Below are positions 16,886 through 48,026 of a DNA stretch of 64,000 bases, in pieces. The position numbers and the translations under genes are program-made. Source of the stretch: a virus (lineage: Duplodnaviria > Caudoviricetes). The notes beneath the pieces were generated by a model, which saw only the letters and a program-made list of their open reading frames with translations, had not been told where the DNA came from and ran no database searches. The number at the start of each line of letters is the position of its first letter. Positions within the stretch are counted from its first letter, which is position 1. The stretch is from IMG/VR virus record IMGVR_UViG_3300005937_000009, positions 1 to 64,000 of that record, one strand, 5' to 3'.

Positions 16886-17371
16886 TTACCTATATAAGAG
16901 TTTAGTTTCCCGGTAGGTCTGCCAGATCAGCAGGCCGATATAGAGGCTGGTAGGTGCAAGCGCCCATTGCTGCCCAAGTAAAAACCAGTAGCCGAGAGCG
17001 GTGCACGCCATGCCGCCATAGCCCGGATGTCTCAGGTGCTTGTAAATGCCGGTTTTGATGATGCGGAGAGGGCGGACGAAGGCGGGCGTAAAATAGGGGT
17101 TCTCTCGAAAGGCTAAAATGGTCAAGGTCTGGCCGACGATCACCAGACATGCGCCCAGTATGCGCATCTCTACGGGCATCTCGGAAGGGTCACAATAAGC
17201 TTGTATGGCTGCCGTGATGGAGATCGACCAGACGAGGCACTGAGCGAGCATGAACAGCGGCGTATGCCGTGCTCCCTTCATATAGTATGCGCGCTGTCTG
17301 GCCGGGATGAATCGCGTTTGCGCGATCGTGGCGCCGACGTTGAGCAGAAAGAAGAGAAGCCACCAGACCAT
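16886..17371 (-). CDS. ICMT/PEMT-family integral-membrane methyltransferase
   Basis: Several TM helices plus IIKTGIYKHLRHPGYGG (GxYxxxRHPxY) and a C-terminal RE..L motif; TGATG coupling. Confidence 0.85.
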   Translation of the reverse strand: MVWWLLFFLLNVGATIAQTRFIPARQRAYYMKGARHTPLFMLAQCLVWSISITAAIQAYCDPSEMPVEMRILGACLVIVGQTLTILAFRENPYFTPAFVRPLRIIKTGIYKHLRHPGYGGMACTALGYWFLLGQQWALAPTSLYIGLLIWQTYRETKLLYR

Positions 17372-17898: not shown

Positions 17899-18404
17899 TA
17901 TGCGGCCTCCGGTTTCTGGTGATCGATCAACCAATCCAATCGCGTCATCTGGTAGACTTGCCAACTGTAATGCACGCCGTTTATCTCCTCTTCTTCGGGA
18001 AGGCCATAGGGATGCAAACCCGTCATCTCACACATGGCGGTAGAGCCTCTATGTTCATGTCCGTTGATGATGGGCCGATGGGTGTAGATCGATTCCGCGT
18101 GCAGATCGTTGAAGAGAGACCAGCCGACTTGATAGACGGCATTGCCGATAACCCGTAGATCGCTCCTGCGGGGTGAGGTGACGTGCAACAGATACTCGGC
18201 TTCCCCGGTCAGTTCGATGCTGATCACCGACAGCAACTTGATATTATCGAAGACCCCCACATACTTTTTGTTCGGCGCGGCTTCAAAGGTGTGATGGATA
18301 TATGCGCGCCGACGAGATGCCCAGAGGCGAGCCCATTCGAGATGCGGCCCCTCGGCAATCGTGATCAATTCGAAATCAGTAGCTAACGGTGTCGATCTCG
18401 CCAT
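17898..18404 (-). CDS. GNAT-like virion assembly protein
   Basis: Lies between nozzle and ejection genes (as T7 gp13 / P22 gp14); VGVFD...SVISIE...LHV...MCEMTG resembles a GNAT fold. Confidence 0.5.
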   Translation of the reverse strand: MARSTPLATDFELITIAEGPHLEWARLWASRRRAYIHHTFEAAPNKKYVGVFDNIKLLSVISIELTGEAEYLLHVTSPRRSDLRVIGNAVYQVGWSLFNDLHAESIYTHRPIINGHEHRGSTAMCEMTGLHPYGLPEEEEINGVHYSWQVYQMTRLDWLIDHQKPEAA

Positions 18405-20658
18405 CTATCTTGAGTTCATCCAGCCGAGCGCTAACGCTATCCTGTGTGGCCATGCGGACCCGTACCGCCACGGTGCGCAGTTTTCGGACATTCATTTTCT
18501 TCCGGGCGGTCGTGACCACGGGAGTATTGACCCCGAAGGTAAGCTGGCCGCTCTGGGAATTGCCCCCGGCCTGTAGATCGCTGATCGGTACGGCGCCATC
18601 AGCCACCGAGCCGTAAATCTCGCAGACGATGTTAGCCGCCGTGCTGCGGCCAGCGGTCAAGATGAGTCCTTCGACAGTCTTATCAAACCCCTCCGCACCC
18701 ATATCCATGAACGGGGAAGCGGCGAAGACTTCGCCCACTTCGCCATTGGCCACCGAAACGGTATAGATATTGGTGGCTCCCGCATTGGTTGGAGATGCGA
18801 AATACATCACCCCCTGTACGGTCGCGGTCGAGGTCGCATAGGTCGGGTCAACATCGCTCAGATCTTCCATTCTGAGCGGTGGCCCCCAGACCCCCATGCG
18901 CAGCATAAATGGCAGCAATGTGCCGTAGCGCGCCGTGCCGCCTGATCGTGTGCCGTCGTCGGCGTGCATATAACAGATAGCCTCGATCTGCTGGTTATAC
19001 GCAACGGTGACTTTGCCGGCATCCCACGTTGACATGATCGAATCGACGGGAGCGGCAAAGGCATGCTCCGTTTCCACCTTATCCCCGAATGCCGCTGAAC
19101 GGGTCGCACCGTTGGTCGTGAAGGCGTAGAGATATCCGTTGGCAAACGCGATTGCTCGCGGGTTCCTGAATCCGACGGTCCAGAATGGCTTAGTGACCAA
19201 TGGCACATCAGGATCTCCGGAAGCCTCCGCGAAGTTGAGGGAATTGGCGGTCAGTAAATAGATCCGCTCCTGCGCCTGGTAATAGCCTATGATCGGGTCG
19301 GGCGGGTCGATCGCCACGGCGGAACGGGCAGGGTAGGCTTCGAAGTTGTAACCGCCCACGGTGCTCTTGGCCGGCCTGATCACCGGGCCGGGTGTTTCAT
19401 CGGCTGACCGGATCGTAAGCCCGGAAGCGGTCGCCAGCGCATTCGTGGCCACCGTCATCGATGTATTAGATGAAATTACCGTCACGCGGTAGAGCAAGTC
19501 GTTGATCCAGACGAAGCGGCCAACCGCCAGCTCTGAAGTGAACTGCGTCGAAGTGCCGGTGATGGTCGCGCTGGCCGCCGTCGTCGCCGCCGTCCCGCTC
19601 AAGACGCGCCCCGCGCCATTGCAGGAGATCAGAACCGGAAGGCCACCGAGCGAGGCGACGAAGCCGGCGGAGGTCGCCGGGTCGTTATCAAATTCAAGTA
19701 GATCATTCTGGGATACTTCGGCGTCGGCCCATTCGATCGTGACGTTACCGCCCCCGCTCGACACTTCGGCAGTCGTGATGAAGCGTCCGAAGTCATACCA
19801 TGGGCCTTGCGTCGGTGTCGTGTTGGTCGAGAGGGTAACGTAAACCTTCCATACGTCCTGGCCCGCTCCCGTGTCCATGGCCGGGAAAGTGATTTGCACC
19901 CGCTGGTTTGCCATGAGCGTTACCGATGCGCTGGGGCTGGCCTGGTTCCATCCCTTCGTGGCGCTTTTGGCCGAAACGATCCTAACGCTGTATGTCGTCG
20001 CGGCCATCTTCGTGCCGCCCGCGACATTCGCCAATGTCGGCGCGACCGGCGTGGTCATCCCGAGGCGATAGGGTGTGTAATTGCCGTTTCCCGGATTGTA
20101 GATAGCAAGCTGCGGTTGATCGGTCAGAGTCCAACCGCCCCCGGCCAGGACCGAACCATTAATGCGGACGGCGCCACGTCCCGCCCCCAGCAGATGCCCC
20201 TCTGGAAGGCGAACCACCGAACCTCGTATCAGGGTCAAAATGACGGTATCGAGCGCTTGAATCTGCTGCAAGATCGCAATCTGAATACCCGAACCGGTGG
20301 ACGCGGCAGCCGGGGAGACCTGCATGGAGGTATCCGAATCAATACGAAAGACCGTATAGACTCGGCTGCTGATTGCTATCTCCTGCCCCGGCACAAATTC
20401 ACTTAAGAACTTGGTGCTTGTCCCCGTGACCGTATTGCTGCCGGTGGTGATGGCAGCGGTGCCGGTCGCCAGGGTATTGCTACCCGATGCGGCAAAGAGT
20501 CCGTATCCTGTGTACTGCTCCAGATACTTGAACTCCGAGCCGCCTTTCAGGATCACATTAAGCCCCTGGTAGATATAATCGGCCTGTTCGCCGGTAACTG
20601 GCGCCGTCGGGTAGTAGCCCTGAATCGGCCTGAAGACTGCCTTGTAGGGATTCGACAT
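18376..20658 (-). CDS. Tail nozzle / tail tubular protein B-like
   Basis: 760 aa, beta-rich, in the canonical position after the adaptor genes. Confidence 0.65.
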   Translation of the reverse strand: MSNPYKAVFRPIQGYYPTAPVTGEQADYIYQGLNVILKGGSEFKYLEQYTGYGLFAASGSNTLATGTAAITTGSNTVTGTSTKFLSEFVPGQEIAISSRVYTVFRIDSDTSMQVSPAAASTGSGIQIAILQQIQALDTVILTLIRGSVVRLPEGHLLGAGRGAVRINGSVLAGGGWTLTDQPQLAIYNPGNGNYTPYRLGMTTPVAPTLANVAGGTKMAATTYSVRIVSAKSATKGWNQASPSASVTLMANQRVQITFPAMDTGAGQDVWKVYVTLSTNTTPTQGPWYDFGRFITTAEVSSGGGNVTIEWADAEVSQNDLLEFDNDPATSAGFVASLGGLPVLISCNGAGRVLSGTAATTAASATITGTSTQFTSELAVGRFVWINDLLYRVTVISSNTSMTVATNALATASGLTIRSADETPGPVIRPAKSTVGGYNFEAYPARSAVAIDPPDPIIGYYQAQERIYLLTANSLNFAEASGDPDVPLVTKPFWTVGFRNPRAIAFANGYLYAFTTNGATRSAAFGDKVETEHAFAAPVDSIMSTWDAGKVTVAYNQQIEAICYMHADDGTRSGGTARYGTLLPFMLRMGVWGPPLRMEDLSDVDPTYATSTATVQGVMYFASPTNAGATNIYTVSVANGEVGEVFAASPFMDMGAEGFDKTVEGLILTAGRSTAANIVCEIYGSVADGAVPISDLQAGGNSQSGQLTFGVNTPVVTTARKKMNVRKLRTVAVRVRMATQDSVSARLDELKIDGEIDTVSY

Positions 20659-21257
20659 TACGATTTGCTGGCGGGTTCGCTCGAAACGCCTATCTGGCCG
20701 CGCAAGCGGATCGCCAGACGATCTTTCAGGTTGTTCTCAATCTCCGGGTCAATTTCGGTGTTGAGATCGCTCTTGGCCGGGATATGGATCACATTCAAAG
20801 TCAAAGGGCTGGTGGTATCGGTAAAGCCCCCGGTGGAGATGGCGCGGGTGTGAATCTCGCTCACGCCTGATGTGTTCCCCTCGATGCAGTAATAGCCGAA
20901 TAGATAGGGAGCGGGGAGGGTGAGCAGATCAGAGCGGTTGTGGACCCGTTGCAGGACGTTGCCATAGCCATTATTCGCGCTCGCGTCTGCGTCTCTCACC
21001 GTACCCTCTCCCATGTATTCGATGAGCACGGTTGCGGGCACCGTCCCGATACCGTTGGTCAAGATTACCGAGAACTCTTTCACCATCCTGGCGCGCAGCC
21101 GTGGATTACCGTGCAGGACCGCCGCGAGTTCCTGAATCGCGCTGTCAAAGATTGATTCCGCCTCAAGGGTCAACTTCTGGATGGGTGCCGTGTCCGGGTC
21201 CATCCCCGCTATCGCAATATCGATCGATTCAAGAATGATCTGGTTGAGAGTCGCCAT
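20658..21257 (-). CDS. Head-tail adaptor / tail tubular protein A-like
   Basis: MATLNQII...helical ends with a beta core; position; TAATG coupling. Confidence 0.5.
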   Translation of the reverse strand: MATLNQIILESIDIAIAGMDPDTAPIQKLTLEAESIFDSAIQELAAVLHGNPRLRARMVKEFSVILTNGIGTVPATVLIEYMGEGTVRDADASANNGYGNVLQRVHNRSDLLTLPAPYLFGYYCIEGNTSGVSEIHTRAISTGGFTDTTSPLTLNVIHIPAKSDLNTEIDPEIENNLKDRLAIRLRGQIGVSSEPASKS

Positions 21258-21985
21258 TAAGCCGCCGTCCCCAGCATCAATTGAGGTATGCCCGTGGAGC
21301 CCGCCGCGATCATCGCCAATCCCGCCTGGTAGTAGCCCGCGAACGTCCCGGCCTGATCCAGGTTCTTGCCGTTGACGGTGGCCGCCGCGACCGCTCCCGC
21401 GACGATCAGATCCGCGAGCACATCGGGAACCGTGATATTGCCCGATGCCACGGCTGATACCTGGTCGCTGCGTTCGTAGACGCAGACATCAATCGTAATG
21501 TTCGTGGTCGTATGCCAGACTTGGCCCCCGCTGATCGTCCATAACCACGGGTTGTTGGTGTAGATTCCAGAATTGTTCTTGTATTTGCTGATCCGCTGGA
21601 CGCTGGCCCGCGTCAAGAGTTGGTCGGTGTCGCTCGCGTCGTAAGCCTCACCGAAAGCGCCGATGATGTTTTTGCCGGTAGAACCGGTCGTCGGCAGGTT
21701 GGCGCCGTGCGAGAGGTTCGATGTCTTATCCCGGAAGAATCCGCGCCATGGGTGGTTCCCTATCCCCTCCCGGTTTACGCAAGAGGCGATAGCCAGCGCA
21801 ATTCGGCCATGAGCGTTGATGGCTAGATCTTGCAGGAAGGCCAAAGGGTAGACCACATCATCAATGGTCGATGTGGTGTGCGGCGTGGTCGCGTAATTGG
21901 TCGCCGCCGCTGATGCGGTCGCGCCCGCGAGGGCGTTGACGTGCTTTGCGATCTCCGAAACGAGTTTCGCGTAGGTAGTGGACAT
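21257..21985 (-). CDS. Putative adaptor/stopper virion protein
   Basis: MSTTYAKLV...helical ends with a beta core; located in the tail module. Confidence 0.45.
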   Translation of the reverse strand: MSTTYAKLVSEIAKHVNALAGATASAAATNYATTPHTTSTIDDVVYPLAFLQDLAINAHGRIALAIASCVNREGIGNHPWRGFFRDKTSNLSHGANLPTTGSTGKNIIGAFGEAYDASDTDQLLTRASVQRISKYKNNSGIYTNNPWLWTISGGQVWHTTTNITIDVCVYERSDQVSAVASGNITVPDVLADLIVAGAVAAATVNGKNLDQAGTFAGYYQAGLAMIAAGSTGIPQLMLGTAA

Positions 21986-22426
21986 CTATAGACCGCTGAT
22001 GCTATCGCCGATAATATAAATATCAGCCGTGGCCGCGCCGCCCTGCGGGGTCGTCAGTGAAAGATAGAGGGTGGTTTCGGTGCGTCTGTCGGTGCCAAGG
22101 ATCGCGGCCAGTGTGCAATCAAGAAACTTGGTAGAACCGGTGAGGGCGGTATAAATCTGGGTATTCGCCACAATCGCGGTAGTCTTTCCCGTCGCCGCGT
22201 AGAATCCTCCGACAGCCGTTGTCAAGCTGGTCGATGGATTTGTCACGATGATTTTTCGAATAATATAATTGCTGCTGTTGATCAAAATGGCCTGGTCAGC
22301 CGTGCTGTTCATATTGGCGGACTTCAGCACGCCCAGCACACCGGTCATCTCGCTTACGACTTTTCGTTGTGGTGCGGTGAAGGACGAAAAGAGGAGAAGA
22401 ATACAGAGAGGTAATAGAAGCTTCAT
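21986..22426 (-). CDS. Tail-module protein with a signal-peptide-like N-terminus
   Basis: ATG at 22426: MKLLLPLCILLLFSSFTA, then a Thr/Ala-rich beta domain. Confidence 0.65.
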   Translation of the reverse strand: MKLLLPLCILLLFSSFTAPQRKVVSEMTGVLGVLKSANMNSTADQAILINSSNYIIRKIIVTNPSTSLTTAVGGFYAATGKTTAIVANTQIYTALTGSTKFLDCTLAAILGTDRRTETTLYLSLTTPQGGAATADIYIIGDSISGL

Positions 22427-22427
22427 A

Positions 22428-22937
22428 TCAATTAACTGTTGCCGTTCCGGTCGCGGCCGTGGCAATCCATTGGGTTGCCGAGATCGCCGTAAGGCTGAGC
22501 GATGAGCCCACGGCATCGAGCGTTACATTGCCCGCCGCCGCTGATTGAGAGGCGCCTACCTGAATCGTGGTCGATGCTCCCGCCGTGATAGTTACCGTCT
22601 GGTTTGCGTCCCGATAGAAGATGTATCGAAGCCCCGCCGCCGCCGTCGGCAAAGTGAAGTTGACGCCCGCACCCGCGCCCGTGTTGGTGAAGAAAGTACC
22701 GGCGTCGGTGGCCAGCACCGTATAACCGGTGGTCTTTGCCGTCACCGTCACGTTTCCCGCCCCTGAGAAGGTAAGCAGATTATTGCTTCGGGTCAGGCTG
22801 TTATTTGGAAAGACGACCTTAGCCGGATTGGTGACTTTGGGCGAGCCGTCGGCCTCCTGAAAGATAATCGGGCTCGCGGTCTGCATCGCGGCCACGAACG
22901 GCAGCAGCAGCAGTATAAAGAGCGAACGATATTTCAT
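22428..22937 (-). CDS. Tail fibre/spike-like protein with a signal peptide
   Basis: ATG at 22937 (TAATG coupling): MKYRSLFILLLLPFVAA; QEADGSP..FPN.SLTR motif; TVTAKTTGYTVLATD...FTLPTAAAGLRY fibre-tip pattern. Confidence 0.7.
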   Translation of the reverse strand: MKYRSLFILLLLPFVAAMQTASPIIFQEADGSPKVTNPAKVVFPNNSLTRSNNLLTFSGAGNVTVTAKTTGYTVLATDAGTFFTNTGAGAGVNFTLPTAAAGLRYIFYRDANQTVTITAGASTTIQVGASQSAAAGNVTLDAVGSSLSLTAISATQWIATAATGTATVN

Positions 22938-23965
22938 TAGTTCCTTAAGGATGTGCGCCATGCGCCCGTGGTGTTATCGTAGATCACATCGGCGCATTTG
23001 TTAGCCGCAAGTGTCAGGGCTGCTCCTGTAGAGTTCAGAAACCGGTTAGCCGCCGTCGAGGATGCCGATTGATGTTGAAAGACGATGTTTTGAGCCCCCA
23101 CATTGCAAATGACGTGCGTTTGCCCATCTACCTGCGCCGTGCTGAAGGTGAGCCCGGTAACATTGCGGGAAGCATCGGAAGACCAGCGCTGAAAGTAGGA
23201 AGTGCCGCCGGGGTTGTAATTATTCTGGTCGGCGGTGATCTGCGCGGGAGTGGTCGCCACGGCGCGAAAGGTGCCGCCCACCGTCGTTGCGCTGGTATGC
23301 AATCCGGTGACGCCGGGAGCCGCACGATTGAGTCCCGTATCCTGCGTGTCGTACCAGTTATTACCGTTCGTCCACCACAGTTTGGCCCCTGAACTGAACG
23401 CCATGCCTGCATTGGCCGGATTGAATGACGTGAATGCCGCCAGTTCGTTTCCGCTTCCGGAATCGAATGTCACGAAGGCGGGACCATAGGTTGAACCACC
23501 CTTGTAAATCCACCAGAGGTCCGCGCCGTTCTCCTGAATCAAAATATGCTTGGATGCGGACGCGGCGGCAGTAGGGGTGATGTTCGATTGCCAGGTAATG
23601 AAGGTCACACCGGCATTGTTCCATGTCGCGGTGTGGGTAAAGGCCGGTGTGCTGCTGGTCAGCGTCCCCTGATTTAACGTCGTGGTCCCGCTAACCGTCC
23701 CGCCCCCGGTGTAGGTGATCTGGCTTCCACTCCGGGTCAGGCTGCCGTTAGGGAAAATGAGCTTTGTAGCATTGGTCTGCGCGGGCGAGCCATCAGCCTC
23801 TTGGATCTTGAGGGGTGGAACAGTCTGCAAAAACGGCAGAAAATCAACCGGAATCCGCAGATTGACTATCGCCTTTTTGCGCGGCGCTTCCCGTTCAGGC
23901 TGCTGAGACAGGCCGATACCGGCCATGGCGCAGAGACAAAATACGATAAGAATAGAACGCTGCAT
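22937..23965 (-). CDS. Tail fibre-like protein with a signal peptide
   Basis: MQRSILIVFCLCAMAGIGLS|QQ; shares the QEADGSP...FPNGSLTR motif with its neighbour. Confidence 0.7.
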   Translation of the reverse strand: MQRSILIVFCLCAMAGIGLSQQPEREAPRKKAIVNLRIPVDFLPFLQTVPPLKIQEADGSPAQTNATKLIFPNGSLTRSGSQITYTGGGTVSGTTTLNQGTLTSSTPAFTHTATWNNAGVTFITWQSNITPTAAASASKHILIQENGADLWWIYKGGSTYGPAFVTFDSGSGNELAAFTSFNPANAGMAFSSGAKLWWTNGNNWYDTQDTGLNRAAPGVTGLHTSATTVGGTFRAVATTPAQITADQNNYNPGGTSYFQRWSSDASRNVTGLTFSTAQVDGQTHVICNVGAQNIVFQHQSASSTAANRFLNSTGAALTLAANKCADVIYDNTTGAWRTSLRN

Positions 23966-23969
23966 TCGA

Positions 23970-26228
23970 TTAAGGCGCGGTATATTTGATGAGGTCGGTT
24001 TCTACCTGGCTCAATACGGCGTTGGTGGTATTGGTCAGATTTTGACCGGTGGCCTTGAAGATCGCGGTTGAACTGGCGGTAAAACCGATACTGACCGTAG
24101 CCGTTTTAGTCGCAATCGCGGTGCCACTTGCATCGATCGTGCCGATGATGGTAGCCACGGCGCGCACGTTGGATGCATCGATTCTCGTGATGGTTCCCCA
24201 GACATGGACGCTTTGAGCCCCGCTGTTCGTCCATGAATGCTGCACAATCACGGTTCCATTGAAGAGAATCTGAAGGTTGCGGCCGACGTTATCGGCAGAA
24301 GTCAGAAAGACGCAATTGAAGTGCATTACGTCGCCATCGGTGCCGAACACATTAGCCGCGATCGTTTTCGAGTGTAGGTCCGTAACCGAATTACTTGAAG
24401 TCGATGAGGTCGCGGTATTGACATAGTACGCGCCACCCAACGTGATCGTATCGGTCGAGGGCGTTGAACCATTGCCTGCCCTCGTGGTGACTCTGCCGCC
24501 GTTATTTAAGGTGTAATAAATAGAACTGTTCTTACCCGCCGTAATGATATCGTTCGCGCCCGTGGTATTGACGCTCAATATCGGGTTGCCCGAGCCGCTT
24601 AAGGTGGCCCCTCCAAACGTCGGCGTAGAAGTCGTGGCAATGTCCTGCGGCGTTGATAACGTGGGATTGCCCGAGACCCCATCACCATTTGAGACGTTAA
24701 CCTGATTGCTCGTACCGGTGATCGTGCGGGTTGTCCATGTGCTCGTTCCCGTTCGCGTGGCTATTCCGTTGGTGCTCAATCCCTCGACCGCGTTCAAATC
24801 GTCGGCCAGGGCCAGGGTGGGATTACCTGAGACGCCGTTGCCATTCGTCACGGTGATACCCGCCGCTGGCCCTGTCAAAGTGCGCGTCGTCCATGTGTCG
24901 GTGGCTGTTCTTGTGGCAAGTCCGTTTGTCGAGAGCCCTTCGACGCCGGCCAGGTCGTTTGCAAGCGCGAGCGTGATATCCCCCGCGATGCCTGCGGGAT
25001 TCGTGATTGTGATGCCTGCTGCCGGTTGCGTCACTTGGCGCTGTACCCATGTATCGGTCGCGGACCTTACGGCAATCCCGGTGCTCGATAGTCCTTCCAG
25101 CGCGGCCAGGTCGTTTGCAAGTGCAAAGGTGGGATCGCCGGCAATGCCCGCCGGATTGGTGATGGTCAGGCCGGCTGCGGGCTGCTGCAACGTCCGGGCG
25201 GACCCGGTGCCGGTCCCCGTGCGCGCCCATAGGCCATTACTCGTATTCGATGCCAATGCATCAAGATCGCTATCAGCCGTGACATTGATCTTTGATCCGG
25301 TGTCGGCTGCGGTATAGCTCGATCCGACAAAGTTTAAGATGTTGCGCTGCGGGAGGTCTGATCCTTCCTCCTGAATCCGGGTGATGGAGCCGTTAACCGT
25401 GAGGGTTCCGCTTGAGATTGAGAACTCGGAAGCCAGGGTTAAACAATTCGTCGGCCTGCCCGATGAAGCGAAATAGACGAGCTGATTGACGGTGCAGGAG
25501 GGCAGAAAGTTATTGATCTCCTGCTTCGAATAGGCGTCTAACCCCGTCACGACCGGGGGCGGATTGACCGTGTTAAAGCTGCAAATGTCCGCCCATGACG
25601 TAGGATTGCTGGTCGAACTCAGCATAAAAGACGTGACGCAACCGGGAAAGTTCTGGATAAATCCCCCGGATTGTGTATAGAGCGCGGCAGACCATCGGGA
25701 AGTGGTAGGGCTGCCGTCGGTCGTGGCCGGAAGATCGAAGGCCGGAAGATAGAGCACATTGGTTGAGCCGTTGTTGACCACGGAGGCCGCAACACGGGTG
25801 TACCAATTGCCGCTCCCCAGAGTGCCGGGTTGAATGGGAACGCTCGACCCGAGAGGCGTGAAGGCTGGCCCCGTCAAATAGGTTCTCAAATGTACGAACT
25901 TATAGAGGGTTCCGCTATAGGTCGTAGTCGCATCAAGAAACGCGCTGGTCAGGGTCGCGGCGGATCTCGAGGGACAAGATGCGACCGTGTACGCCGTGCC
26001 GTTGATCAGGATGCGCCAGCCGGCCAACCCTACAACACTCTGCGGAAAGCATGAACTACATGTTAACGATGTGCTGGAAAGGGTCGCGCTGATCCCTGAA
26101 ATCGTCAGATCGCTACCGATGTCAGTACGGTTGAAGCCGTTGACTGTCGTTGCCCCGATTGTAATGTCGGTGGCCAGCGCTGGCCCGGTGAGCACGAAGA
26201 AAAGAAGGATAAAGAGCAGATATCGCAT
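23970..26228 (-). CDS. Long tail fibre with a signal peptide and four 52-aa repeats
   Basis: MRYLLFILLFFVLTGPALA|T; IQEEGSDLPQRNILNFVG fibre joint motif; DL..LEGLST.G.ATRT repeats. Confidence 0.75.
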   Translation of the reverse strand: MRYLLFILLFFVLTGPALATDITIGATTVNGFNRTDIGSDLTISGISATLSSTSLTCSSCFPQSVVGLAGWRILINGTAYTVASCPSRSAATLTSAFLDATTTYSGTLYKFVHLRTYLTGPAFTPLGSSVPIQPGTLGSGNWYTRVAASVVNNGSTNVLYLPAFDLPATTDGSPTTSRWSAALYTQSGGFIQNFPGCVTSFMLSSTSNPTSWADICSFNTVNPPPVVTGLDAYSKQEINNFLPSCTVNQLVYFASSGRPTNCLTLASEFSISSGTLTVNGSITRIQEEGSDLPQRNILNFVGSSYTAADTGSKINVTADSDLDALASNTSNGLWARTGTGTGSARTLQQPAAGLTITNPAGIAGDPTFALANDLAALEGLSSTGIAVRSATDTWVQRQVTQPAAGITITNPAGIAGDITLALANDLAGVEGLSTNGLATRTATDTWTTRTLTGPAAGITVTNGNGVSGNPTLALADDLNAVEGLSTNGIATRTGTSTWTTRTITGTSNQVNVSNGDGVSGNPTLSTPQDIATTSTPTFGGATLSGSGNPILSVNTTGANDIITAGKNSSIYYTLNNGGRVTTRAGNGSTPSTDTITLGGAYYVNTATSSTSSNSVTDLHSKTIAANVFGTDGDVMHFNCVFLTSADNVGRNLQILFNGTVIVQHSWTNSGAQSVHVWGTITRIDASNVRAVATIIGTIDASGTAIATKTATVSIGFTASSTAIFKATGQNLTNTTNAVLSQVETDLIKYTAP
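24645..25268 (-). repeat. Four tandem 52-aa (156-bp) repeats in the tail fibre gene
   Basis: DLDALASNTSNGLWART.../DLAALEGLSSTGIAVRS.../DLAGVEGLSTNGLATRT.../DLNAVEGLSTNGIATRT... Confidence 0.9.
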
Positions 26229-26229
26229 A

Positions 26230-26580
26230 CTATCCTAATAGACCATTGATCCTGGCGGTCACAGTCCCACCACCAACCACGTTAGCCGACAATCGAGCCC
26301 GGACCCATGCCAGCATGCCCGGATAGGTGCCGTGATAGGCAACGCCCCCGGTCAGCGTTGAAAGGTCGATTGAATCAAGTTCATGCCAGGTGCCTGTATA
26401 TGACGGGCTCTCAGAGTTGGTCTCTATCTTCAGAGTGCCTGATGAGATCGTACCGGCCCCAGCCACATCCCATGAGATCTGGCGGCAGTCATTCATGGCC
26501 TTCGTGGTGCCGGTGCCTGTCGTCGCCGCACTGAGGCTTAACGAATCATCGCTTGATGGCGGAAATTTAGAACCAACCAT
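26230..26580 (-). CDS. Small beta-sandwich virion protein
   Basis: 116 aa; GTLKIETNS...W...WVRARLS pattern; structural operon. Confidence 0.55.
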   Translation of the reverse strand: MVGSKFPPSSDDSLSLSAATTGTGTTKAMNDCRQISWDVAGAGTISSGTLKIETNSESPSYTGTWHELDSIDLSTLTGGVAYHGTYPGMLAWVRARLSANVVGGGTVTARINGLLG

Positions 26581-26592: not shown

Positions 26593-27375
26593 TTACCATC
26601 CATAGTTGCCGGTCATCCGGCCCACGGGCATAAAATCAAGCTCGTAATCGCGGCCCATGCCGAGCTTCTGATTGACTCCTTCACGGGTGGGCTGAGCCTT
26701 GAAATCGTTGAATTGCTTTTGATACTTGGTGATGGCGTTGCTGAGCACTAGCGCCAGCGCTTTACACTTCATCTCCCATGCATCCGTCTTCTCGGTCAGG
26801 GAGACCGCGCCCCATGCGCATGCGGGCAGGGCATCGAGCGCCGTTTCGCACCTGATCAGGTGATGAAAAGCGCTGATTCCGGGCGTATCCTCAAGGGAAC
26901 CGACATCGTAAAAGCAGTCGTACCAGATTTCGTATGTCACCGTCCCGCCTGGAATCGGGACAGGCCGCGCATACCATTGGGGAGCGGTCGCGGGCGTGCG
27001 GTAGAAAACGATCTCTACAGCGGAGTGCAATTGAGAGTTGTATTGCTGCGGCCCTAAATACCTGTATTCGGCATCCTGCATCAATGTGAAGGGGACTTCT
27101 CTCCGGACGTGGTAAGGGTCGCTAGCGTCCGTGGTATAGACCAGAAAAGGGCGCCCGAAGTCGGATGCGGTAATCAGATAATCCTCTGATCCTGATCCGG
27201 TGGTGAGCGTCGTATGATTCACTGCCCAATGCGCCCGCACGTTGGCGAGTTGTAGCGTGTGGTCCGCTATCTTCTCCAACAGGATGTTGAGCAATATATG
27301 CTGCTGCGGGGCGGAGGGGTCAGGCTCAAGCAATCGCTGCCTGATCAGCGCGAGATTAGTTGTGATGGAAGGCAT
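26593..27375 (-). CDS. Putative head-tail connector/adaptor protein
   Basis: 260 aa; GGAG SD; helical ends with a beta core; position. Confidence 0.45.
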   Translation of the reverse strand: MPSITTNLALIRQRLLEPDPSAPQQHILLNILLEKIADHTLQLANVRAHWAVNHTTLTTGSGSEDYLITASDFGRPFLVYTTDASDPYHVRREVPFTLMQDAEYRYLGPQQYNSQLHSAVEIVFYRTPATAPQWYARPVPIPGGTVTYEIWYDCFYDVGSLEDTPGISAFHHLIRCETALDALPACAWGAVSLTEKTDAWEMKCKALALVLSNAITKYQKQFNDFKAQPTREGVNQKLGMGRDYELDFMPVGRMTGNYGW

Positions 27376-30447: not shown

Positions 30448-31710
30448 TTAATTTATATCCGCAACCTGGGTTGCTAAGCCTACCACGCTGCATCGCTTTA
30501 TAAGGGCGTGGCATCTTGGTTCCTCCGTTCCCCAATTTGCCCACATGCCAATGGCTCCCGTGTAGGCGTCGGCACCGTATCCGGTCGAGCCTGAGCGCAT
30601 GCGCAACTTGTTGCCGTCGGCATCGTAAGTATCGAGCGGCCTTTCCTCGTACTTCTTCAACTCGCTCTTGACGAGCAAATAAACGCGGTCTTCGTCGCAA
30701 TCCGGATCGACAGCGGCTACCGTGTCCCCATGCTGCCACTTGTCAAAAGACTGATCGAAGATCTTTGCGTCTCCATCCCATCTCTTGAAGTTCTGGCCCA
30801 ACTGCGTCAACGCCTGATCCTGCGCGAGCGACATGACAGCGATAAGAGTTTTTGCCTTGCCGATGCCGGCACGAGAGATCAAGAGCCGCTTGGTGTAGTT
30901 GAAATCGGCGGTTGTGATGGCCGCACCGTTGAGATCGCGCACCGGGCAGCGCAATTGCGGGTAGGTGTTCCGCGATTGGAGTTGAAACGTTCCGGTATCG
31001 TTGTTCACGATGTACGCCAAGCCTCGCGGCATCTTGTACAGTGAATTGGAGAGGACGAGGATATCGCCATCAGTCGCGCCCGAGACAGCGGCGGCAATGG
31101 TGATGGTTTTCGCGGCCTTGGCTGTTACCTGGACCGTGGCCCGGTAGGTCGCCAGCGTCGAGTCATACCAATCATAGCGCTCGGATACTTCCATATGCCG
31201 CGCTCCCTTGGTCGAACCAAAGGTAGAAAGCGGCGTATGATCGATCGCGTTGTAGAGCGTAACGGTGGTGGTCCCCGATTTGTATGTCGATCGGAGGCCG
31301 GAACCATCGTTATAGACCTGGCGATTACATTCTTTCTTAATCGCCATCATCTCAAATTCCATATATCCGGGCAGGCCATCGATCATCGATCCCTTACCCG
31401 CGAAGTTGTTGAGCGCTCGCCCGGTGATTTCGAAAGCTTTCGAAATGTTCATCGGATAGACGAACATATCGTCATTCGTGAATGCACCGGGTTGATTGAA
31501 CGCGCCACCCTCCGCAATACCACTGACGCCTACGGGCGGGCGGAGATTGGACGGCACGCGAAAGCCTTTACCCTGCACATACTCAGTGCTCGCGGCCTTC
31601 TCGAATAGGTTGTATGTCGCGGTCTCTTGCTCAAACTGAGGTCTGAGCGAGTTAGCGACAAGTTGATCCAGTGCGGGGGCGATTGCCGCAATATTTACTG
31701 CAACACCCAT
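30448..31710 (-). CDS. Major capsid protein (HK97 fold)
   Basis: 420 aa after the scaffold gene; GVSGIAEGGAF, MPRGLAYIV, DRVYLL patterns; strong GGAGGT SD. Confidence 0.8.
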   Translation of the reverse strand: MGVAVNIAAIAPALDQLVANSLRPQFEQETATYNLFEKAASTEYVQGKGFRVPSNLRPPVGVSGIAEGGAFNQPGAFTNDDMFVYPMNISKAFEITGRALNNFAGKGSMIDGLPGYMEFEMMAIKKECNRQVYNDGSGLRSTYKSGTTTVTLYNAIDHTPLSTFGSTKGARHMEVSERYDWYDSTLATYRATVQVTAKAAKTITIAAAVSGATDGDILVLSNSLYKMPRGLAYIVNNDTGTFQLQSRNTYPQLRCPVRDLNGAAITTADFNYTKRLLISRAGIGKAKTLIAVMSLAQDQALTQLGQNFKRWDGDAKIFDQSFDKWQHGDTVAAVDPDCDEDRVYLLVKSELKKYEERPLDTYDADGNKLRMRSGSTGYGADAYTGAIGMWANWGTEEPRCHALIKRCSVVGLATQVADIN

Positions 31711-33301: not shown

Positions 33302-33528
33302 GGCTCCGGGATCTTCCAGCCCTTTGAGCGTACTTCTTCATTGCGCTGCCGCTTCGCCGCAATGCGCTTGTAGAGTTCGGCTTCGCCTTCGAATTGTTCT
33401 TTCAAGCTATCTTGCAGCTCGAGGAGTATGGCGCGCATCTGATCGGTGGTGACGTGCTTGATCCGCTTCGGTCTCGGTCGAAACCGGGCAATGATCGCAG
33501 AAATGAGATGCTTAAGCCTTTGTAGCAT
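33298..33528 (-). CDS. Hypothetical protein
   Basis: 76-aa ORF overlapping the end of fcl. Confidence 0.5.
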   Translation of the reverse strand: MLQRLKHLISAIIARFRPRPKRIKHVTTDQMRAILLELQDSLKEQFEGEAELYKRIAAKRQRNEEVRSKGWKIPEP

Positions 33529-34465
33529 GCGCCGTTCTCTGGGCCTTGTACCAATCTACTGTTTCGCGCAGACCCGCGCCTAACCATCTCTTCGCGTTAA
33601 ATCCGAATTTGGCGTTGGCCTTTGAGACTTCAAGCCATCGGTTCATCTGCCCATCCGGCCTTGAATGATCCCATTGAATCTTGCCTCTGAATCCGCATTG
33701 AGACGCAATCAAGCATGCGATCTCTTCGATGCTGATGGCAACGCCCGTGCCGACGTTCACGGGATCGCTCGAATCATAGCGCTCGGCCGCAAGTAAGATG
33801 GCATCGACCGCATCTTCGACGTGGAGGAAGTCACGGGTAGGCCGACCAGTGCCCCAGAGGGTAATGGATTGCGCCCCGGTCTCGACCGCTTCCACACACT
33901 TTCGAATAATGGCCGGGATAACGTGCGAGGTCTCCGGGTCGAAGTTGTCACGCGGGCCGTAGAGATTGGCCAACAGGAGATTGATGGAATTGAATCCGTA
34001 CTGCGCTCGGTATGCCTGAGACTGGATGATGAGCGTTTTCTTGGCCATCCCGTAGGCTGCATTCGTCGGTTCAGGGTATCCGTTCCATAGATCTTCCTCA
34101 CGGAAGGGAACCGGCGTATTTTCGGGATAGCTGCAAATAGTACCGATGGAGATAAATTTGCGCACAGCCTCAATGCGCGCTCTCATCAGCAAGTACAAGC
34201 CCATCATGACATTAAAATCCCACATATCGGCGGGGCTTCCCTCGTTGAGTCCGATACCTCCACAATAGGCTGCACAGTGAATAATGCAATCTGGGTCTAT
34301 ATCATCAAATAAATCTTTGACTTCTGCTCTTTCACATAAATCGTAATCATCACTGGACGGCGCATAAACTGTCGCTCCTCGCGCTTGTAACTTCTCGACC
34401 ACATAAGAGCCGAGAAAGCCGGACCCGCCGGTCACTAACACACGCTGAAAAGGAAAGTCAGTCAT
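33512..34465 (-). CDS. fcl: GDP-L-fucose synthase (epimerase/reductase)
   Basis: VLVTGGSGFLGS, IHCAAYCGGIG, SIGTICSYP, YGMAK, NLYGPRDNFD, SHVIPAII, WGTG.PTRDFLHVED. Confidence 0.95.
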   Translation of the reverse strand: MTDFPFQRVLVTGGSGFLGSYVVEKLQARGATVYAPSSDDYDLCERAEVKDLFDDIDPDCIIHCAAYCGGIGLNEGSPADMWDFNVMMGLYLLMRARIEAVRKFISIGTICSYPENTPVPFREEDLWNGYPEPTNAAYGMAKKTLIIQSQAYRAQYGFNSINLLLANLYGPRDNFDPETSHVIPAIIRKCVEAVETGAQSITLWGTGRPTRDFLHVEDAVDAILLAAERYDSSDPVNVGTGVAISIEEIACLIASQCGFRGKIQWDHSRPDGQMNRWLEVSKANAKFGFNAKRWLGAGLRETVDWYKAQRTAHATKA

Positions 34466-34467
34466 AC

Positions 34468-35520
34468 TTACCGACCCGTCGCCTTGATATATCCCGCCGT
34501 ATATTCCGGGCCGACAGGGACGAAACTTTCGCCCCTACTACACCGGGCTTGCGCGAAGTCGCAATCTACCATGTTCTGCACAATCTGCTTAAATGTATGC
34601 TTCGGCTCCCATCCCAGCGCTTTCCGGGCCTTGCTCGCGTCTCCGCACAGCGAATGCAGTTCAGTTGGCCTGTACAATCGCGGGTCGATCTCAACGTAAT
34701 GCTGCCAGTCCATACCGAGATAGCCGAACGCTTCGTCAAGGATCTCACACACTGAATGACTTTCACCGGTCGCTATTACATAGTCGTCGGGCGTATCCTG
34801 CTGCATCATCAACCAGATCGCCTCTACGTAATCTGGAGCGTAACCGATATCGCGTTTTGCGTCGAGATTGCCGAGTTTCAGCGTCTTGTCCAATCTCAAC
34901 TTGATCCGCGCTGCCGCCTTCGTGATCTTGCGCGTTATGAAAGTCTCTTTCTGTCGCGCCGATGTGTGGTTGAAGAGAATACCGTTGACTACGAACAACT
35001 GCGTTGCCGCGTAGTAGCCGTGTCGGGCTTTCACTGCACATTGATAGGCTTCGTGCTTGCTCTCACCATAAGGAGAGCAGGGCTTAAACGGCGTCATTTC
35101 GTTTTGAATGTCATCCTCTGCATTTCCAAACATCTCGCTACTGCTCGCCTGATATATCTTTGGATAACCGGGAATTGTGGGCCAGTTCAATGCCGCTCTT
35201 AACAAGACTTGCACCATGCCGGCGGTATTCACATCCCTCGTATATTTCGGCATCTGAAAGCTGATCTGAACGTGAGACTGGGCGGCCAGATTGTATATCT
35301 CGTGTGGCTGGCATTCCTGCAACACCATTCGGATTGCATCTTCATCCAGCAGATCGCAATACCGCATCTGCAAATGTCTGTAGATATGGTCAATCCGCCC
35401 GGTATTGATCGAAGAACATGGTCTTTGCGTACCCCATACTTCATAACCCTTGCTCAACAGGAGTTCAGCAAGATAGCTCCCATCCATTCCGGTAATGCCG
35501 GTGATCAGCGCTCTTTTCAC
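34468..35520 (-). CDS. gmd: GDP-mannose 4,6-dehydratase
   Basis: ALITGITGMDGSYLAELLL, YNLAAQSHV, YQASSSEMFG, SPYGESK, NGILFNH, LGNLDAKRD.G.A.DYVEA.W.M.Q. Confidence 0.97.
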   Translation of the reverse strand: MKRALITGITGMDGSYLAELLLSKGYEVWGTQRPCSSINTGRIDHIYRHLQMRYCDLLDEDAIRMVLQECQPHEIYNLAAQSHVQISFQMPKYTRDVNTAGMVQVLLRAALNWPTIPGYPKIYQASSSEMFGNAEDDIQNEMTPFKPCSPYGESKHEAYQCAVKARHGYYAATQLFVVNGILFNHTSARQKETFITRKITKAAARIKLRLDKTLKLGNLDAKRDIGYAPDYVEAIWLMMQQDTPDDYVIATGESHSVCEILDEAFGYLGMDWQHYVEIDPRLYRPTELHSLCGDASKARKALGWEPKHTFKQIVQNMVDCDFAQARCSRGESFVPVGPEYTAGYIKATGR

Positions 35521-35771
35521 TGCTTTACCCGCTCGAAATGTACAGTAAATTCGTCGCCAACCTTCGTATCAGCAAGCAGGAATTGAGCCGGGATAGTGAA
35601 GAGCCCGTCCAACGAGAACCCCAAAGACGGCGCATCATTTACTATCCGGACCCCAAACGAATGATGAATGATCACCTCATATTGCCCGGACTTCAACGCC
35701 TCCACGGTCTGCCCCATGAGTGTTTCTTCTCGCCAGGTCTCGTTTATTACGTGGATTTTCAATGGTGCCAC
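35517..35771 (-). CDS. Hypothetical protein
   Basis: 84-aa ORF coupled to gmd. Confidence 0.55.
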   Translation of the reverse strand: MAPLKIHVINETWREETLMGQTVEALKSGQYEVIIHHSFGVRIVNDAPSLGFSLDGLFTIPAQFLLADTKVGDEFTVHFERVKQ

Positions 35772-35962
35772 CTCTTCGCATTGGCCGCGAAAACGGCCCG
35801 CTTCTTCAATGTCGGGTTGCTCGAATGAAGGGCTTTGCTCAACTTCTTCGCGGGAATCGGTTCGCCTTGCGCGACCCCGAGAGATTTATGCAACAGCCCC
35901 TTATGACTCGGCTTGATGTGGATACCCGATTTCCGGCTTTGCCGTTGCCTCTGTGCGTTCAT
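35759..35962 (-). CDS. Small basic protein (KGLLHKSLGV...IPAKKL family)
   Basis: Lys/Arg-rich; resembles small basic head-module proteins of environmental phages (from memory). Confidence 0.65.
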   Translation of the reverse strand: MNAQRQRQSRKSGIHIKPSHKGLLHKSLGVAQGEPIPAKKLSKALHSSNPTLKKRAVFAANAKRWHH

Positions 35963-36171
35963 CAGCCCTCCAGATGCGCGCCGCCTTTGGCCTTCCGGGA
36001 TTGCCGCGCACGCTGCGCCTTGCGGCCCGTGGGTGCGCGCTCCGGTAGGGATTTAGTCGGATAGCCTGAGACGTACTCTTCGGCCTTCTCCGGGCTCAAT
36101 CCCGGTGCCTGGATGCTTCCCGATGCGACCCCGCGCATAAAACGAGCCTGTTTCTTGGATACTGGCGGCAT
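35962..36171 (-). CDS. Small basic protein (MPxxSKKQARFM family)
   Basis: The MPPVSKKQARFM N-terminus is a recurrent motif in podovirus head modules. Confidence 0.65.
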   Translation of the reverse strand: MPPVSKKQARFMRGVASGSIQAPGLSPEKAEEYVSGYPTKSLPERAPTGRKAQRARQSRKAKGGAHLEG

Positions 36172-36179
36172 GATTCACC

Positions 36180-38171
36180 TCAACTTGAAATCAATTGAAT
36201 CTCTGCGGGCTGCTCCGACCAGTGCGGAATCTTGCGTTTCTCCAGCCATTCGAAGATTGACATGCAGCGCTTTGTGACCTTGCCATTCTCGATATGCGGG
36301 TAGAGGACGTGGGAATCTTCATGGCCGATGCAGACGTTGACCGCGAGCGCGGCTTTGAATCCCTGATCACAGAAGTTGCGCCAGAAGTAGATATCAGCGT
36401 CGGTGTGCTCTACCCAATCCCCATCTTTATCCGGGACATTGAGAAACCATGGCTTGCGCAGCTTCTCAAAAACCCGTCTGCGAAAGACGGTCAATCCGAA
36501 ATGCCCGGTAGTGATCGGGACTAACCCCTGTGTGAGATCCACCGGCCCAGCAGTGCCGCATAGAACCTCTTCGAATGTCCCGCGCCGAGCCTGGACCGGT
36601 ACAATGCAGTCATACTGCGGATTCTGGTACAACAGCTTGATCATCTCGTAGACATCATCAGCGGTGCCTATCGTGTCGTAATCGGCGGTGAGGATAACGT
36701 CTGTCTCGTCGCCCTTCTGGTCTTTATACTGAAGCGCACTCTTGATCGATCGCGTCAAACCCTGCTCCCACCACGCGCCGCCGCTGGTGAGCAATGGAGC
36801 CCGCAGCATGACGGCAATCGCGCCGAGCACATCATTGGCATACAGGGAACCGTACCGGGGGCGACTCATCACCATGGCTACAACAACTTTCTTTTGTTCG
36901 GCAATAAGTCCGTTGTCGTGCCATTGCCCCGAGATGAATTGCCGCCCCGGTTCCTTGTTCTCTCGAATCTCCTCACCTTTGACCGGCCAGTTTTCGAGCT
37001 TCTTGGCTTCGTCTTTCCGTACCGCGATCAGGTTGCAATAGGTGCGGCAGATTATCTCATATCCGCGAGCCTCAAGGACGAAGCGCAGCGCGAGCCGGCC
37101 CGCCTGTCCATCCCCGTTAGGCTCAGGGATGAACATCGGATCGGCGTCGGGTGCGTATTCCGCCACGATCACACGCGGCTTGTACTTCACCATGGCGTTG
37201 AGTATGTGATACTCCTGCCCGTCAATATCCAATGAAAGGAGATCAATATCTATCGGTGCATCAACCAAGCTGAGCGCGGCGTCTACGCTGTAGTCACGGG
37301 TCAGGGCGTGATTGATCAGAATCACACCTGACCCCTGATCAGGGTAGCGCTGTTTGAGGCTGTGAAATAGCTTCTCGTCGGGCTCCATCAACAGGGCACC
37401 GCATCCGTTCTCTATCAATCGTCGCGTATTGGAGAAAAAGAGCCCGTCTGCCGCGCCCGCTTCGAAGCAAAACGCATTCTTGAACTTGATGGCGTTGAAG
37501 ATGGCCTCAATGATCCCATCCTCTCCGAACTGGCTATACTGATTAAGCGGTGCGATCGATTCAACAAACCCCTGATACTTGGGCTCCAGCGGCATATCGT
37601 CCGGAATATCGTAGCTGTAGGGCACGGTCTCGATCTCGATCGGCTTGGGAGCGGATTGCGGTTGTGGCTTCCTGGCCATCAGGTTGAGACTGACCGGGAG
37701 AGAGGCACAATCGTTCTTTAGTTCGCTCTGCCATGGTTCGATCTCAATCAATCCGGCATCGCTCATCAGCAATCGCAAGTTGTATTCATCAAAGATCGAC
37801 TTATGATAGTCGCTCGCGTGCTGCTGGCCACCCATCAGGAAAGAAGCGATAGGCGCATTTGGCGGGCATTCCCGTTGCCCAAGATATGCCTCACAGATCC
37901 ACCGGAAGTTGGGAACGGCCAGCTTGAGGATCCCCCCCGGCTTGAGGACGCGGACCCACTCTTTCAGGATCGCGGGAATCTCGGCAAGTGAAAAGTGCTC
38001 TAACGTGTGGCTGCACCTGATCACCTCGGCGCTGTTGTCGGCGTAGCGGGTCAGCGGATAGATCGAATCCCCGCGTTGCCCGTCGAGGTTATCGTAGCCG
38101 TCAAGCCAGGTGTCGGGATGGCCCGCGCCGAGGTTCAATTTCAAAGATGCTGTGATCGTGCCGTCTTTCAT
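36180..38171 (-). CDS. Three-domain fusion: class I SAM methyltransferase + FkbM-like methyltransferase + GT-A glycosyltransferase-like domain
   Basis: LNLGAG...SHTLEHF...WVRVLKPGG; YSQFGEDGI...EAGAADG..SNT...SLDIDGQEY; TADYD...GLTVFRRRVFEKL.KPWF...DIYF...CIGH. Confidence 0.8.
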   Translation of the reverse strand: MKDGTITASLKLNLGAGHPDTWLDGYDNLDGQRGDSIYPLTRYADNSAEVIRCSHTLEHFSLAEIPAILKEWVRVLKPGGILKLAVPNFRWICEAYLGQRECPPNAPIASFLMGGQQHASDYHKSIFDEYNLRLLMSDAGLIEIEPWQSELKNDCASLPVSLNLMARKPQPQSAPKPIEIETVPYSYDIPDDMPLEPKYQGFVESIAPLNQYSQFGEDGIIEAIFNAIKFKNAFCFEAGAADGLFFSNTRRLIENGCGALLMEPDEKLFHSLKQRYPDQGSGVILINHALTRDYSVDAALSLVDAPIDIDLLSLDIDGQEYHILNAMVKYKPRVIVAEYAPDADPMFIPEPNGDGQAGRLALRFVLEARGYEIICRTYCNLIAVRKDEAKKLENWPVKGEEIRENKEPGRQFISGQWHDNGLIAEQKKVVVAMVMSRPRYGSLYANDVLGAIAVMLRAPLLTSGGAWWEQGLTRSIKSALQYKDQKGDETDVILTADYDTIGTADDVYEMIKLLYQNPQYDCIVPVQARRGTFEEVLCGTAGPVDLTQGLVPITTGHFGLTVFRRRVFEKLRKPWFLNVPDKDGDWVEHTDADIYFWRNFCDQGFKAALAVNVCIGHEDSHVLYPHIENGKVTKRCMSIFEWLEKRKIPHWSEQPAEIQLISS

Positions 38172-44808: not shown

Positions 44809-45021
44809 CTATTTGCGGATCAGGCCGGTGATCTGTTGAGAAGCAGTGAGCCTGCCGACGAGAGTAAGGACCATGCCGGCCAGGTCCGCAATCATTTCGG
44901 GTGTGCCCTGTAGTCTAGGCTGTAGTTTGGGAGCGAAAACCCCGATTGCCATAATGATTACGCCCCAAAAGACTTTGGAAGTGATAAGGGCTTTGCCTTG
45001 TTCGGTGTCGAAAGAGGACAT
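44809..45021 (-). CDS. Holin-like two-TM protein
   Basis: ATG at 45021 with GAAAGGAG SD; ITSKVFWGVIIMAIG...LAGMVLTLVGR holin-like pattern. Confidence 0.55.
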   Translation of the reverse strand: MSSFDTEQGKALITSKVFWGVIIMAIGVFAPKLQPRLQGTPEMIADLAGMVLTLVGRLTASQQITGLIRK

Positions 45022-47775: not shown

Positions 47776-48026
47776 TTGATTTTCAGGACCATTGCGGCCA
47801 GCGTTCCGACCAATGCCAGGAGGTTGAGAACGAAGACCGTGAGCACTTTGATTGCGGCGCTTTCAAGCCGGTCAATCCGTTTAGTGTTATCTTCCTGGCC
47901 CGCTTTAATTCCGTCCAAAATCAATAAGATGCGCGCATTAAAAACCGCTTGTTCAATTTCTTCAGAGTCGTTGACTGGTGTACTGCGTTTAGCCATCGCT
48001 GCTGTTGGAGAGTGCGAGAGTTCCAT
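47772..48026 (-). CDS. Small coiled-coil + C-terminal TM protein (holin/XhlA-like)
   Basis: RIDRLE followed by the hydrophobic VLTVFVLNLLALVGTLAAMVL; ATGA coupling to the PAS gene. Confidence 0.55.
   Translation of the reverse strand: MELSHSPTAAMAKRSTPVNDSEEIEQAVFNARILLILDGIKAGQEDNTKRIDRLESAAIKVLTVFVLNLLALVGTLAAMVLKIK

Follow-up and report, generated by a model that had tools for sequence, protein, structure and literature searches.

Sec-type signal peptides on the fibre cassette of an uncultured, podovirus-like soil phage

Four consecutive minus-strand genes (A, B, C and D) at the fibre position of the virus record IMGVR_UViG_3300005937_000009 each begin with a signal peptide of the Sec/signal peptidase I (SPase I) type, as confirmed by rule-based sequence calls. 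According to textbooks, assembly of tailed phages takes place wholly inside the cytoplasm. For this phage, we consider it on balance somewhat probable that the fibres leave the cytoplasm by export, are cleaved, acquire disulfides in the periplasm and then dock on the particle at or after lysis. What the analysis itself shows are the signals and their conservation, a cleavage column in fibre A, the loss of cysteines together with the signal, an anchor-like N-terminal fold and the status of A as the sole long fibre candidate. An initial sequence-only reading had suggested that the appendages may be exported, matured and added at lysis. This finds partial support: comparison with relatives speaks well for export and cleavage, the joint loss of cysteines favours maturation via disulfides, and lysis is the most likely point at which the proteins would be added to the particle.

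The window, that is, the whole stretch of DNA analysed, comprises the first 64 kb of the 72,189-base virus record. From its 123-base terminal overlap, the genome is complete and circular with 72,066 bp. Judged by the gene layout, the virus is an uncultured short-tailed (podovirus-like) soil phage, and a rhizosphere metagenome, the only run listed as containing the record, may be its source.

Four signal peptides in a row

The cassette lies on the minus strand between head-tail adaptor genes and contains the following features (aa, amino acids):

23970..26228, minus strand: fibre A, 752 aa, with signal, anchor-like N-domain, QEEGS joint, four 52-aa repeats and beta-rich tip; found clade-wide
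26172..26228, minus strand: predicted signal of A, residues 1-19, with A-L-A before the cut and a mature start at Thr20
25569..26171, minus strand: N-domain of A, about residues 20-220, modelled as a beta-sandwich with an inserted barrel (AlphaFold2 (AF2) predicted local distance difference test (pLDDT) score 84.9)
24642..25265, minus strand: four 52-aa shaft repeats of A, residues 322-529, 33-65% pairwise identity
22937..23965, minus strand: fibre B, 342 aa, with signal, EADGSP domain and C-terminal beta-sandwich tip
22428..22937, minus strand: fibre C, 169 aa, with signal, EADGSP domain and small beta tip; no Cys
21986..22426, minus strand: protein D, 146 aa, a signal on a small conserved domain

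The start codons lie 0-4 nt from the upstream stop, with the junctions TAG-T-ATG at 26228 (A), TAA-TCGA-ATG at 23965 (B), a TAATG overlap at 22937 (C) and TGA-T-ATG at 22426 (D); the earlier remark that the starts at 22937 and 22426 sit at or next to upstream stops was thus accurate. Signals were called by a rule that demands a basic n-region, a hydrophobic h-region and small residues at -3/-1. All four N-termini pass it: the n-region is basic, the hydrophobic core spans 8 residues with a mean Kyte-Doolittle value of 3.05-3.58, and the -3/-1 residues are small. Since the same rule accepts only 2/278 internal Met starts of the genome and 0/1109 windows inside the four mature bodies, four calls in a row are far beyond chance. 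Chance hydrophobic N-termini were rejected by this decoy rate, and the run of four Sec-type signals, first noticed by eye, holds. The predicted signals comprise residues 1-20 in B (with Gln at +1), about residues 1-17 in C and about residues 1-18 in D, the latter with the least clear cleavage site of the four. The mature proteins are rich in T/S/G/A/N and contain no lipobox, twin-arginine (Tat) motif or membrane helix (best 19-residue hydropathy <=1.25), so that the cleaved products would be soluble; on the same grounds, lipoprotein or membrane display in the service of superinfection exclusion was rejected.

The contig of a sister phage (L066) contains the same four-gene cassette with all four signals kept. 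Between this contig and the window, the signals are less alike than the mature parts (identity of signal/mature part 63/81% for A, 26/77% for B, 82/86% for C and 44/89% for D), and faster drift of the signal is the pattern of a signal kept for function. Furthermore, the 15 signal calls among 267 open reading frames (ORFs) of related virion modules fell on 14 fibre-slot genes and one membrane methyltransferase, with zero calls for capsid, adaptors, nozzle and ejection proteins; among virion components of this clade, it would thus be only the appendages that carry signals. In P0001 and P0283 (L044:7953-10259), public gene callers had placed the start internally and so trimmed the signal; the pattern is thereby concealed in database entries.

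A quite unlikely alternative is that the virion pool of these proteins remains cytoplasmic, with export being leaky or jammed late in infection, internal starts giving signal-less forms, or the N-terminus only tethering the fibres to the inner membrane during assembly, and with disulfides forming after lysis. Such a scenario keeps the textbook assembly route, and disulfides have been reported in some phage tail tubes without export signals (PMC13576161). B, C and D do have in-frame Met codons (Met14, Met18 and Met27, respectively); that of C directly follows the predicted cut, is kept in the sister phage and could serve as a second start. However, A has no start codon at or near its cut, nor is one conserved there across its 30 signal-bearing orthologues, and the sister phage has Asp in place of Met27 of D while retaining a signal, albeit a divergent one; wrong start calls were rejected for A and D on these grounds. 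The earlier caveat that true starts might lie downstream of the hydrophobic segment therefore falls away for these two proteins and stands for Met18 of C, so that a cytoplasmic pool is possible for C and hard to sustain for A. The active site of SPase I faces the periplasm. As the conserved -3/-1 site points to this enzyme, cleavage would be periplasm-facing, which also speaks against a cytoplasmic pool.

Fibre A with and without a signal

Family A, defined by its N-terminal 250 residues, has a member in almost all relatives for which the retrieved DNA extends to the fibre position. It adjoins the adaptors in this genome, L001, L045 and L067 and lies among ejection genes in L043, L044 and L046-L052, always inside the virion module; the 5 records in which copies were counted have one each. 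At the fibre position of the distant L016, the gene is signal-less and unrelated. The signal is kept in 30/34 orthologues, which together with the sister cassette (4/4) answers the earlier question of whether related phages retain it. In all 30 signal-bearing sequences, the cleavage column reads A/S/G/C at -1 and A/V/S at -3. The four signal-less orthologues start at, or <=3 residues from, the predicted mature N-terminus, and in the three genes checked on DNA an in-frame stop lies 1-9 codons upstream. An apparent fifth case was a gene-caller error, as the true ATG 16 codons upstream gives a full signal. The signal-less forms do not group as a single clade (p-AU 0.025); the tree implies 2-3 changes, and one of the four sits on a long branch.

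Mature A contains the cysteine pairs Cys57-Cys60 and Cys197-Cys216 in the N-domain and Cys245-Cys262 after it. Both residues of the last pair are found in 28/28 signal-bearing orthologues covering the region and in 0/4 signal-less ones, being lost together; the corresponding Fisher p of 3e-5 is overstated, given the relatedness of the sequences. Residues 57-60 form a CxxC that is likewise absent from 4/4 signal-less orthologues and also from one signal-bearing subclade. Cysteine loss along with the signal is what would be predicted for disulfides formed in the periplasm.

Judged by composition, A is the only long fibre candidate in the complete genomes, exported or not. In G002 (complete, 51 kb), signal-less A is the single long T/S/G/A/N-rich gene; in G004 (complete, 65 kb), such genes are limited to signal-bearing A and a 189-aa signal-bearing partner; and in the genome studied here (G000), all long fibre-like genes save the nozzle bear signals, the other signal-less ones being small (97-116 aa). 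Signal-less A is restricted to acting within the cytoplasm or as part of the particle. The simplest role that both forms could share is hence that of a virion fibre, which in turn would imply export first and attachment later for the signal-bearing majority.

It is unlikely, albeit worth weighing, that the proteins are exported and never reach the particle, acting instead as cell-displayed adhesins or as soluble periplasmic or released receptor-binding decoys that mask the receptor against superinfection or against inactivation of the progeny by cell debris. The signals look genuine, bacteria do have secreted phage-fibre-like adhesins such as the MAT fibres of Bdellovibrio (PMC10769870), signal-peptide genes of other phages have been read as envelope modifiers (PMC10367356), and the fold of the A N-domain also occurs in pilins and adhesins; the case is strongest for B, C and D. 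Against it, membrane anchor, lipobox and Tat motif are all absent, the late virion operon includes these genes as coupled members, the same slot is filled by signal-less A orthologues that cannot be exported, and the phages of this genome and of G004 would be left without a long fibre. For display on the infected cell, the other function envisaged in the sequence-only reading, the signal-less orthologues count against it as well, as they cannot be displayed and yet fill the role in some relatives; display is thus disfavoured.

Anchor, shaft and accessory tips

A single-sequence AlphaFold2 prediction of mature A reached a pLDDT of 35, and a good model was obtained for the N-terminal 281 residues only, with an alignment (residues 20-300, pLDDT 84.9). 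When the model of the N-domain was searched against 48,161 solved chains, the top three matches were A-1(L) gp82N (Z 8.4), Ur-lambda StfN (Z 8.3) and the N-terminal domain (NTD) of XM1 gp40 (Z 8.1), each with a root-mean-square deviation of about 3.1 A over 92-95 residues and a sequence identity of 6-11%. All three are anchors: the N-domain of the neck fibre gp82 of cyanophage A-1(L) (PDB 8KEG, PMC10966104), StfN of the Ur-lambda side fibre Stf (PDB 9E7M, PMC12617516) and the NTD of the collar spike gp40 of Vibrio phage XM1 (PDB 7KJK, 10.1101/2021.12.18.469577) attach their fibres to the virion. Foldseek yielded nothing at E 0.001 or better against the PDB and only partial matches with low TM-score against BFVD, and a PDB sequence search with A was empty. 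The model hence suggests a virion-anchor-like N-domain, which is support for, and not proof of, a place on the particle.

Further along, A contains the QEEGS motif at residue 286, and its shaft matches the structural protein family phrog_697 (E 3e-22) and is 48% identical to the annotated tail fibre of OP596612. Two orthologues carry a pectate-lyase-type spike domain. The tip of B, which is 40% identical to the same OP596612 fibre, resembles C-terminal sandwiches of the phage fibre or depolymerase type, and B and C share the EADGSP domain (39% identity over 100 aa, E 2e-15), with the QEADGSP motif at residue 55 in B and residue 27 in C. This domain appears to go with signals: 9/11 EADGSP-bearing B homologues pass the signal rule and the other two visibly have a signal, as compared to 31/108 among homologues without the domain; one signal-less carrier (P0104) was found. 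Gln at +1, as in B, recurs in 32/40 signal-bearing B homologues. D falls into a large small-protein family (720 homologues; 24 with and 95 without a signal among the top 119) and looks like a small domain rather than an evident fibre. The description of the mature parts as fibre-like therefore stands with regard to the T/S/G/A/N-rich composition, the 52-aa repeats and both joint motifs, and does not extend to D. As the fibre slot of relatives contains zero to four extra genes, signal-bearing and signal-less ones mixed, we propose an optional, accessory role as fibres or tips for B, C and D; a receptor-binding-type tip or a shaft related to known fibres did not emerge for C or D.

A route from periplasm to particle

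Taken together, we envisage that, late in infection, the host Sec machinery would send A-D through the inner membrane, where signal peptidase I would cut the signals. In the periplasm, the proteins would fold, fibre A forming its conserved disulfides, and stay soluble for want of a membrane anchor. Once lysis opens the inner membrane, they would meet the DNA-filled particles built in the cytoplasm; fibre A may then dock via its N-terminal beta-sandwich on the neck or adaptor rings, and B, C and D may join as optional accessory fibres or tips. That the proteins are in fact exported, form disulfides and are present on the virion is thus inferred here, as are the timing, the site of docking and the way in which B, C and D attach.

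Several points weigh against it. The signals are rule-based sequence calls, and the anchor matches reach only Z values of about 8, near the level of unrelated models, for a sandwich fold that is also found in bacterial pilins and adhesins (PMC10966104, 10.1101/2021.12.18.469577). The correlation between cysteines and signal amounts to 2-3 independent losses, and Cys197-Cys216 is kept in 3/4 signal-less A proteins. Many relatives lack B, C and D, and a virion-anchor domain was recognised in none of the three. Moreover, the compositional filter behind the sole-fibre argument could miss an unusual spike, and the inserts of the nozzle might bind the host. Finally, no endolysin was recognised among the scanned ORFs, and the lysis step itself is assumed.

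With regard to the clade as a whole, we see the chances as evenly balanced that assembly is split, with head, neck and nozzle made in the cytoplasm and the whole host-recognition apparatus Sec-exported, disulfide-bonded and joined at lysis, and that gain or loss of the signal acted as the switch more than once.

Comparison with known systems

Fibre A resembles A-1(L) gp82, XM1 gp40 and Ur-lambda Stf in its N-terminal fold and its modular build of anchor, shaft and tip, and the chain of consecutive genes A-D has a counterpart in gp82-gp81-gp80 of cyanophage A-1(L). The gp82 fibre self-assembles before attachment (PMC10966104), gp40 completes assembly in XM1 (10.1101/2021.12.18.469577), and for both phages the authors propose that the fibre is attached last. 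However, the gp82, gp40 and Stf domains are modelled from residue 1 and lack a signal peptide; the cleavable signal before the anchor, the inserted 80-residue barrel and the conserved Cys pairs are found in A only.

The MAT fibres of Bdellovibrio bacteriovorus are likewise phage-fibre-like, with mosaic tips, a signal followed by a beta-rich conserved domain, and some disulfides. These are, however, surface-borne and chromosomal, and 13/21 end in an S74 chaperone (PMC10769870), a domain for which A-D gave no Pfam match; moreover, A-D are encoded in the virion operon of a complete circular phage genome and signal-less orthologues exist.

A further case is WAX24263, the tail fibre of Bradyrhizobium phage ppBdUSDA122-1 (OP596612), which shares the shaft of A (48%) and the tip of B (40%). 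Together with its neighbour WAX24264 (L003:5635-9716), it has a signal-like N-terminus and is Cys-rich (18 and 6 Cys, respectively), and the two genes lie right after that of the central tail protein. Unlike the phage studied here, ppBdUSDA122-1 has a long-tailed layout with a tape measure gene, and the N-domain of its fibre differs from that of A. In the related paper, nothing was found on signals, fibres or virion proteins.

Signal-peptide genes in Porphyromonas gingivalis phages, some of them Sec-type with Gln at +1 as in fibre B, were read as envelope modifiers of unknown function, with no mention of 'tail fiber' (PMC10367356). In the full-text literature searched, the coverage of which is incomplete, no description of Sec-exported fibres in tailed phages was found. 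The coat proteins pIII and pVIII of filamentous phages are virion proteins made with cleavable signals, pIII having periplasmic disulfides as well. They remain membrane-anchored and are picked up during extrusion of the single-stranded DNA filament, unlike A-D, which belong to a tailed double-stranded DNA phage and have no anchor in the mature proteins.

Implications

If the proposed route is true, host secretion and disulfide machinery would be part of virion morphogenesis, offering possible points for anti-phage defence, and fibres could be kept apart from particles until release. Annotation would likewise have to change, as gene callers trim signals (in the two cases above) and signal-peptide filters would wrongly discard fibres as non-structural. 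Exported phage fibres would also plausibly bridge the gap from phage fibres to adhesins that bacteria secrete, the MAT family among them. New here are natural controls, namely signal-less versions of a single orthologous gene, and a tail fibre that is related, signal-bearing and rich in Cys, encoded in a phage record of cultured Bradyrhizobium diazoefficiens USDA 122; with these two at hand the idea is testable.

Virion module and flanking genes

The podovirus-like module on the minus strand runs in the order terminase, portal-like and scaffold-like genes, capsid, 260-aa adaptor-like protein, 116-aa protein, A-D, SU10-type adaptor, 199-aa protein, nozzle and ejection-type genes, the last of which encodes a 3108-aa protein bearing an SLT domain; tape-measure, sheath or tube genes were not recognised in it. 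The flanking features are:

42611-44353, minus strand: terminase, assigned in this analysis
virion module, minus strand: portal-like and scaffold-like genes, assigned by position
30448-31710, minus strand: major capsid protein (phrog_14242)
26593..27375, minus strand: adaptor-like ring protein 1, 260 aa, upstream flank; kept in all syntenic relatives, putative role from position
26230..26580, minus strand: 116-aa signal-less T/S/G-rich protein directly upstream of the cassette, in some relatives only
21257..21985, minus strand: SU10-type head-tail adaptor, 242 aa, downstream flank (PF24175 E 1.6e-6, above the cut-off)
20658..21257, minus strand: adaptor-like ring protein 3, 199 aa, conserved; putative role from position
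18376..20658, minus strand: nozzle/hub-like protein, 760 aa, without signal and with two fibre-type inserts; putative role from position

The three adaptor-like genes (20658-21985, 26593-27375) are kept in all relatives, one of them with the PF24175 match, which suggests stacked neck rings, and the 116-aa protein is a candidate base or decoration protein. The inserts of the nozzle-like protein match phrog_1591/1980/2712 at residues 64-150 and phrog_5838 at residues 353-404; by eye, they look like the barrel inserted in the N-domain of A. In many relatives, the nozzle is shorter (about 660 aa).

Endolysin or spanin families were not found among the scanned ORFs of the complete genome. By inspection only, two holin-like ORFs were noted on the minus strand (window 47772-48026 and 44809-45018). 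A stand-alone PAS-domain gene (window 47326-47775, minus strand; the PAS match was assigned to the ORF by inspection) is coupled to a holin-like ORF. A membrane methyltransferase of the PEMT/ICMT family (window 16886-17371, minus strand) lies among the ejection-protein genes, a position kept in many relatives. One could imagine that complete particles pass through the inner membrane, mature either in the periplasm or inside vesicles, pick up their fibres there and exit without classical endolysin-driven lysis. Both the lack of an endolysin family and the conserved methyltransferase would suit this scenario. We nevertheless hold it very improbable, as the holin-like ORFs are present, an endolysin of an unknown family or in a short ORF could have been missed, and no mechanism is known for moving a tailed capsid across an intact membrane.

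Between the portal and scaffold genes (window 33512-38171, minus strand), the head operon contains gmd-like and fcl-like genes for GDP-fucose synthesis (33512-35520) and a 663-aa methyltransferase fusion. Along with the Ser/Thr-rich fibres, these could be taken to indicate that export serves to decorate the fibres with a glycan containing fucose, for which gmd/fcl and the methyl- or glycosyltransferase genes of the phage would be responsible; periplasmic glycosylation as such had been part of the sequence-only reading. Glycosylation as the purpose of export is extremely improbable. N-x-S/T sequons occur at 1.4-2.9 per 100 aa, about the composition expectation (about 2.0 for A), with one extended D/E-x-N-x-S/T sequon in all four proteins, and N-glycosylation as the driver of export was rejected since sequons are not enriched. 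In addition, the close relative L002 (94% identical capsid protein, signal-bearing fibres) has the methyltransferase fusion and not gmd/fcl at the same position. The gmd/fcl products and transferases lack signals and would thus be cytoplasmic, where capsids or host polysaccharide would be easier targets.

Single-protein locus searches with two adaptors found no relatives. With the capsid protein as query, no prophage of the clade was found in GTDB genomes; for the terminase, a single match emerged, a partial one of 50% in Labilithrix luteola. Gln at +1 played no part in assigning a host; Acidobacteria lie outside the scope of the paper on this Q-rule. A homologue of fibre B on contigs of Blastocatellia metagenome-assembled genomes is only a weak hint at a host, being located within a different kind of element. 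On one such contig (L055:7370-12288), two signal-bearing fibre genes, one of them B-homologous, follow a signal-less 862-aa fibre-like gene. The element appears virus-like (Prim-Pol, SLT and a holin-like gene); a terminase or portal was not seen in the 21 kb fetched.

Lastly, a fifth signal-bearing protein of 213 aa is encoded near the holin-like and terminase genes (window 46058-46699, minus strand). With zero family matches, a beta-rich sequence and Gln after the cut, it is possibly an outer-membrane or envelope protein.

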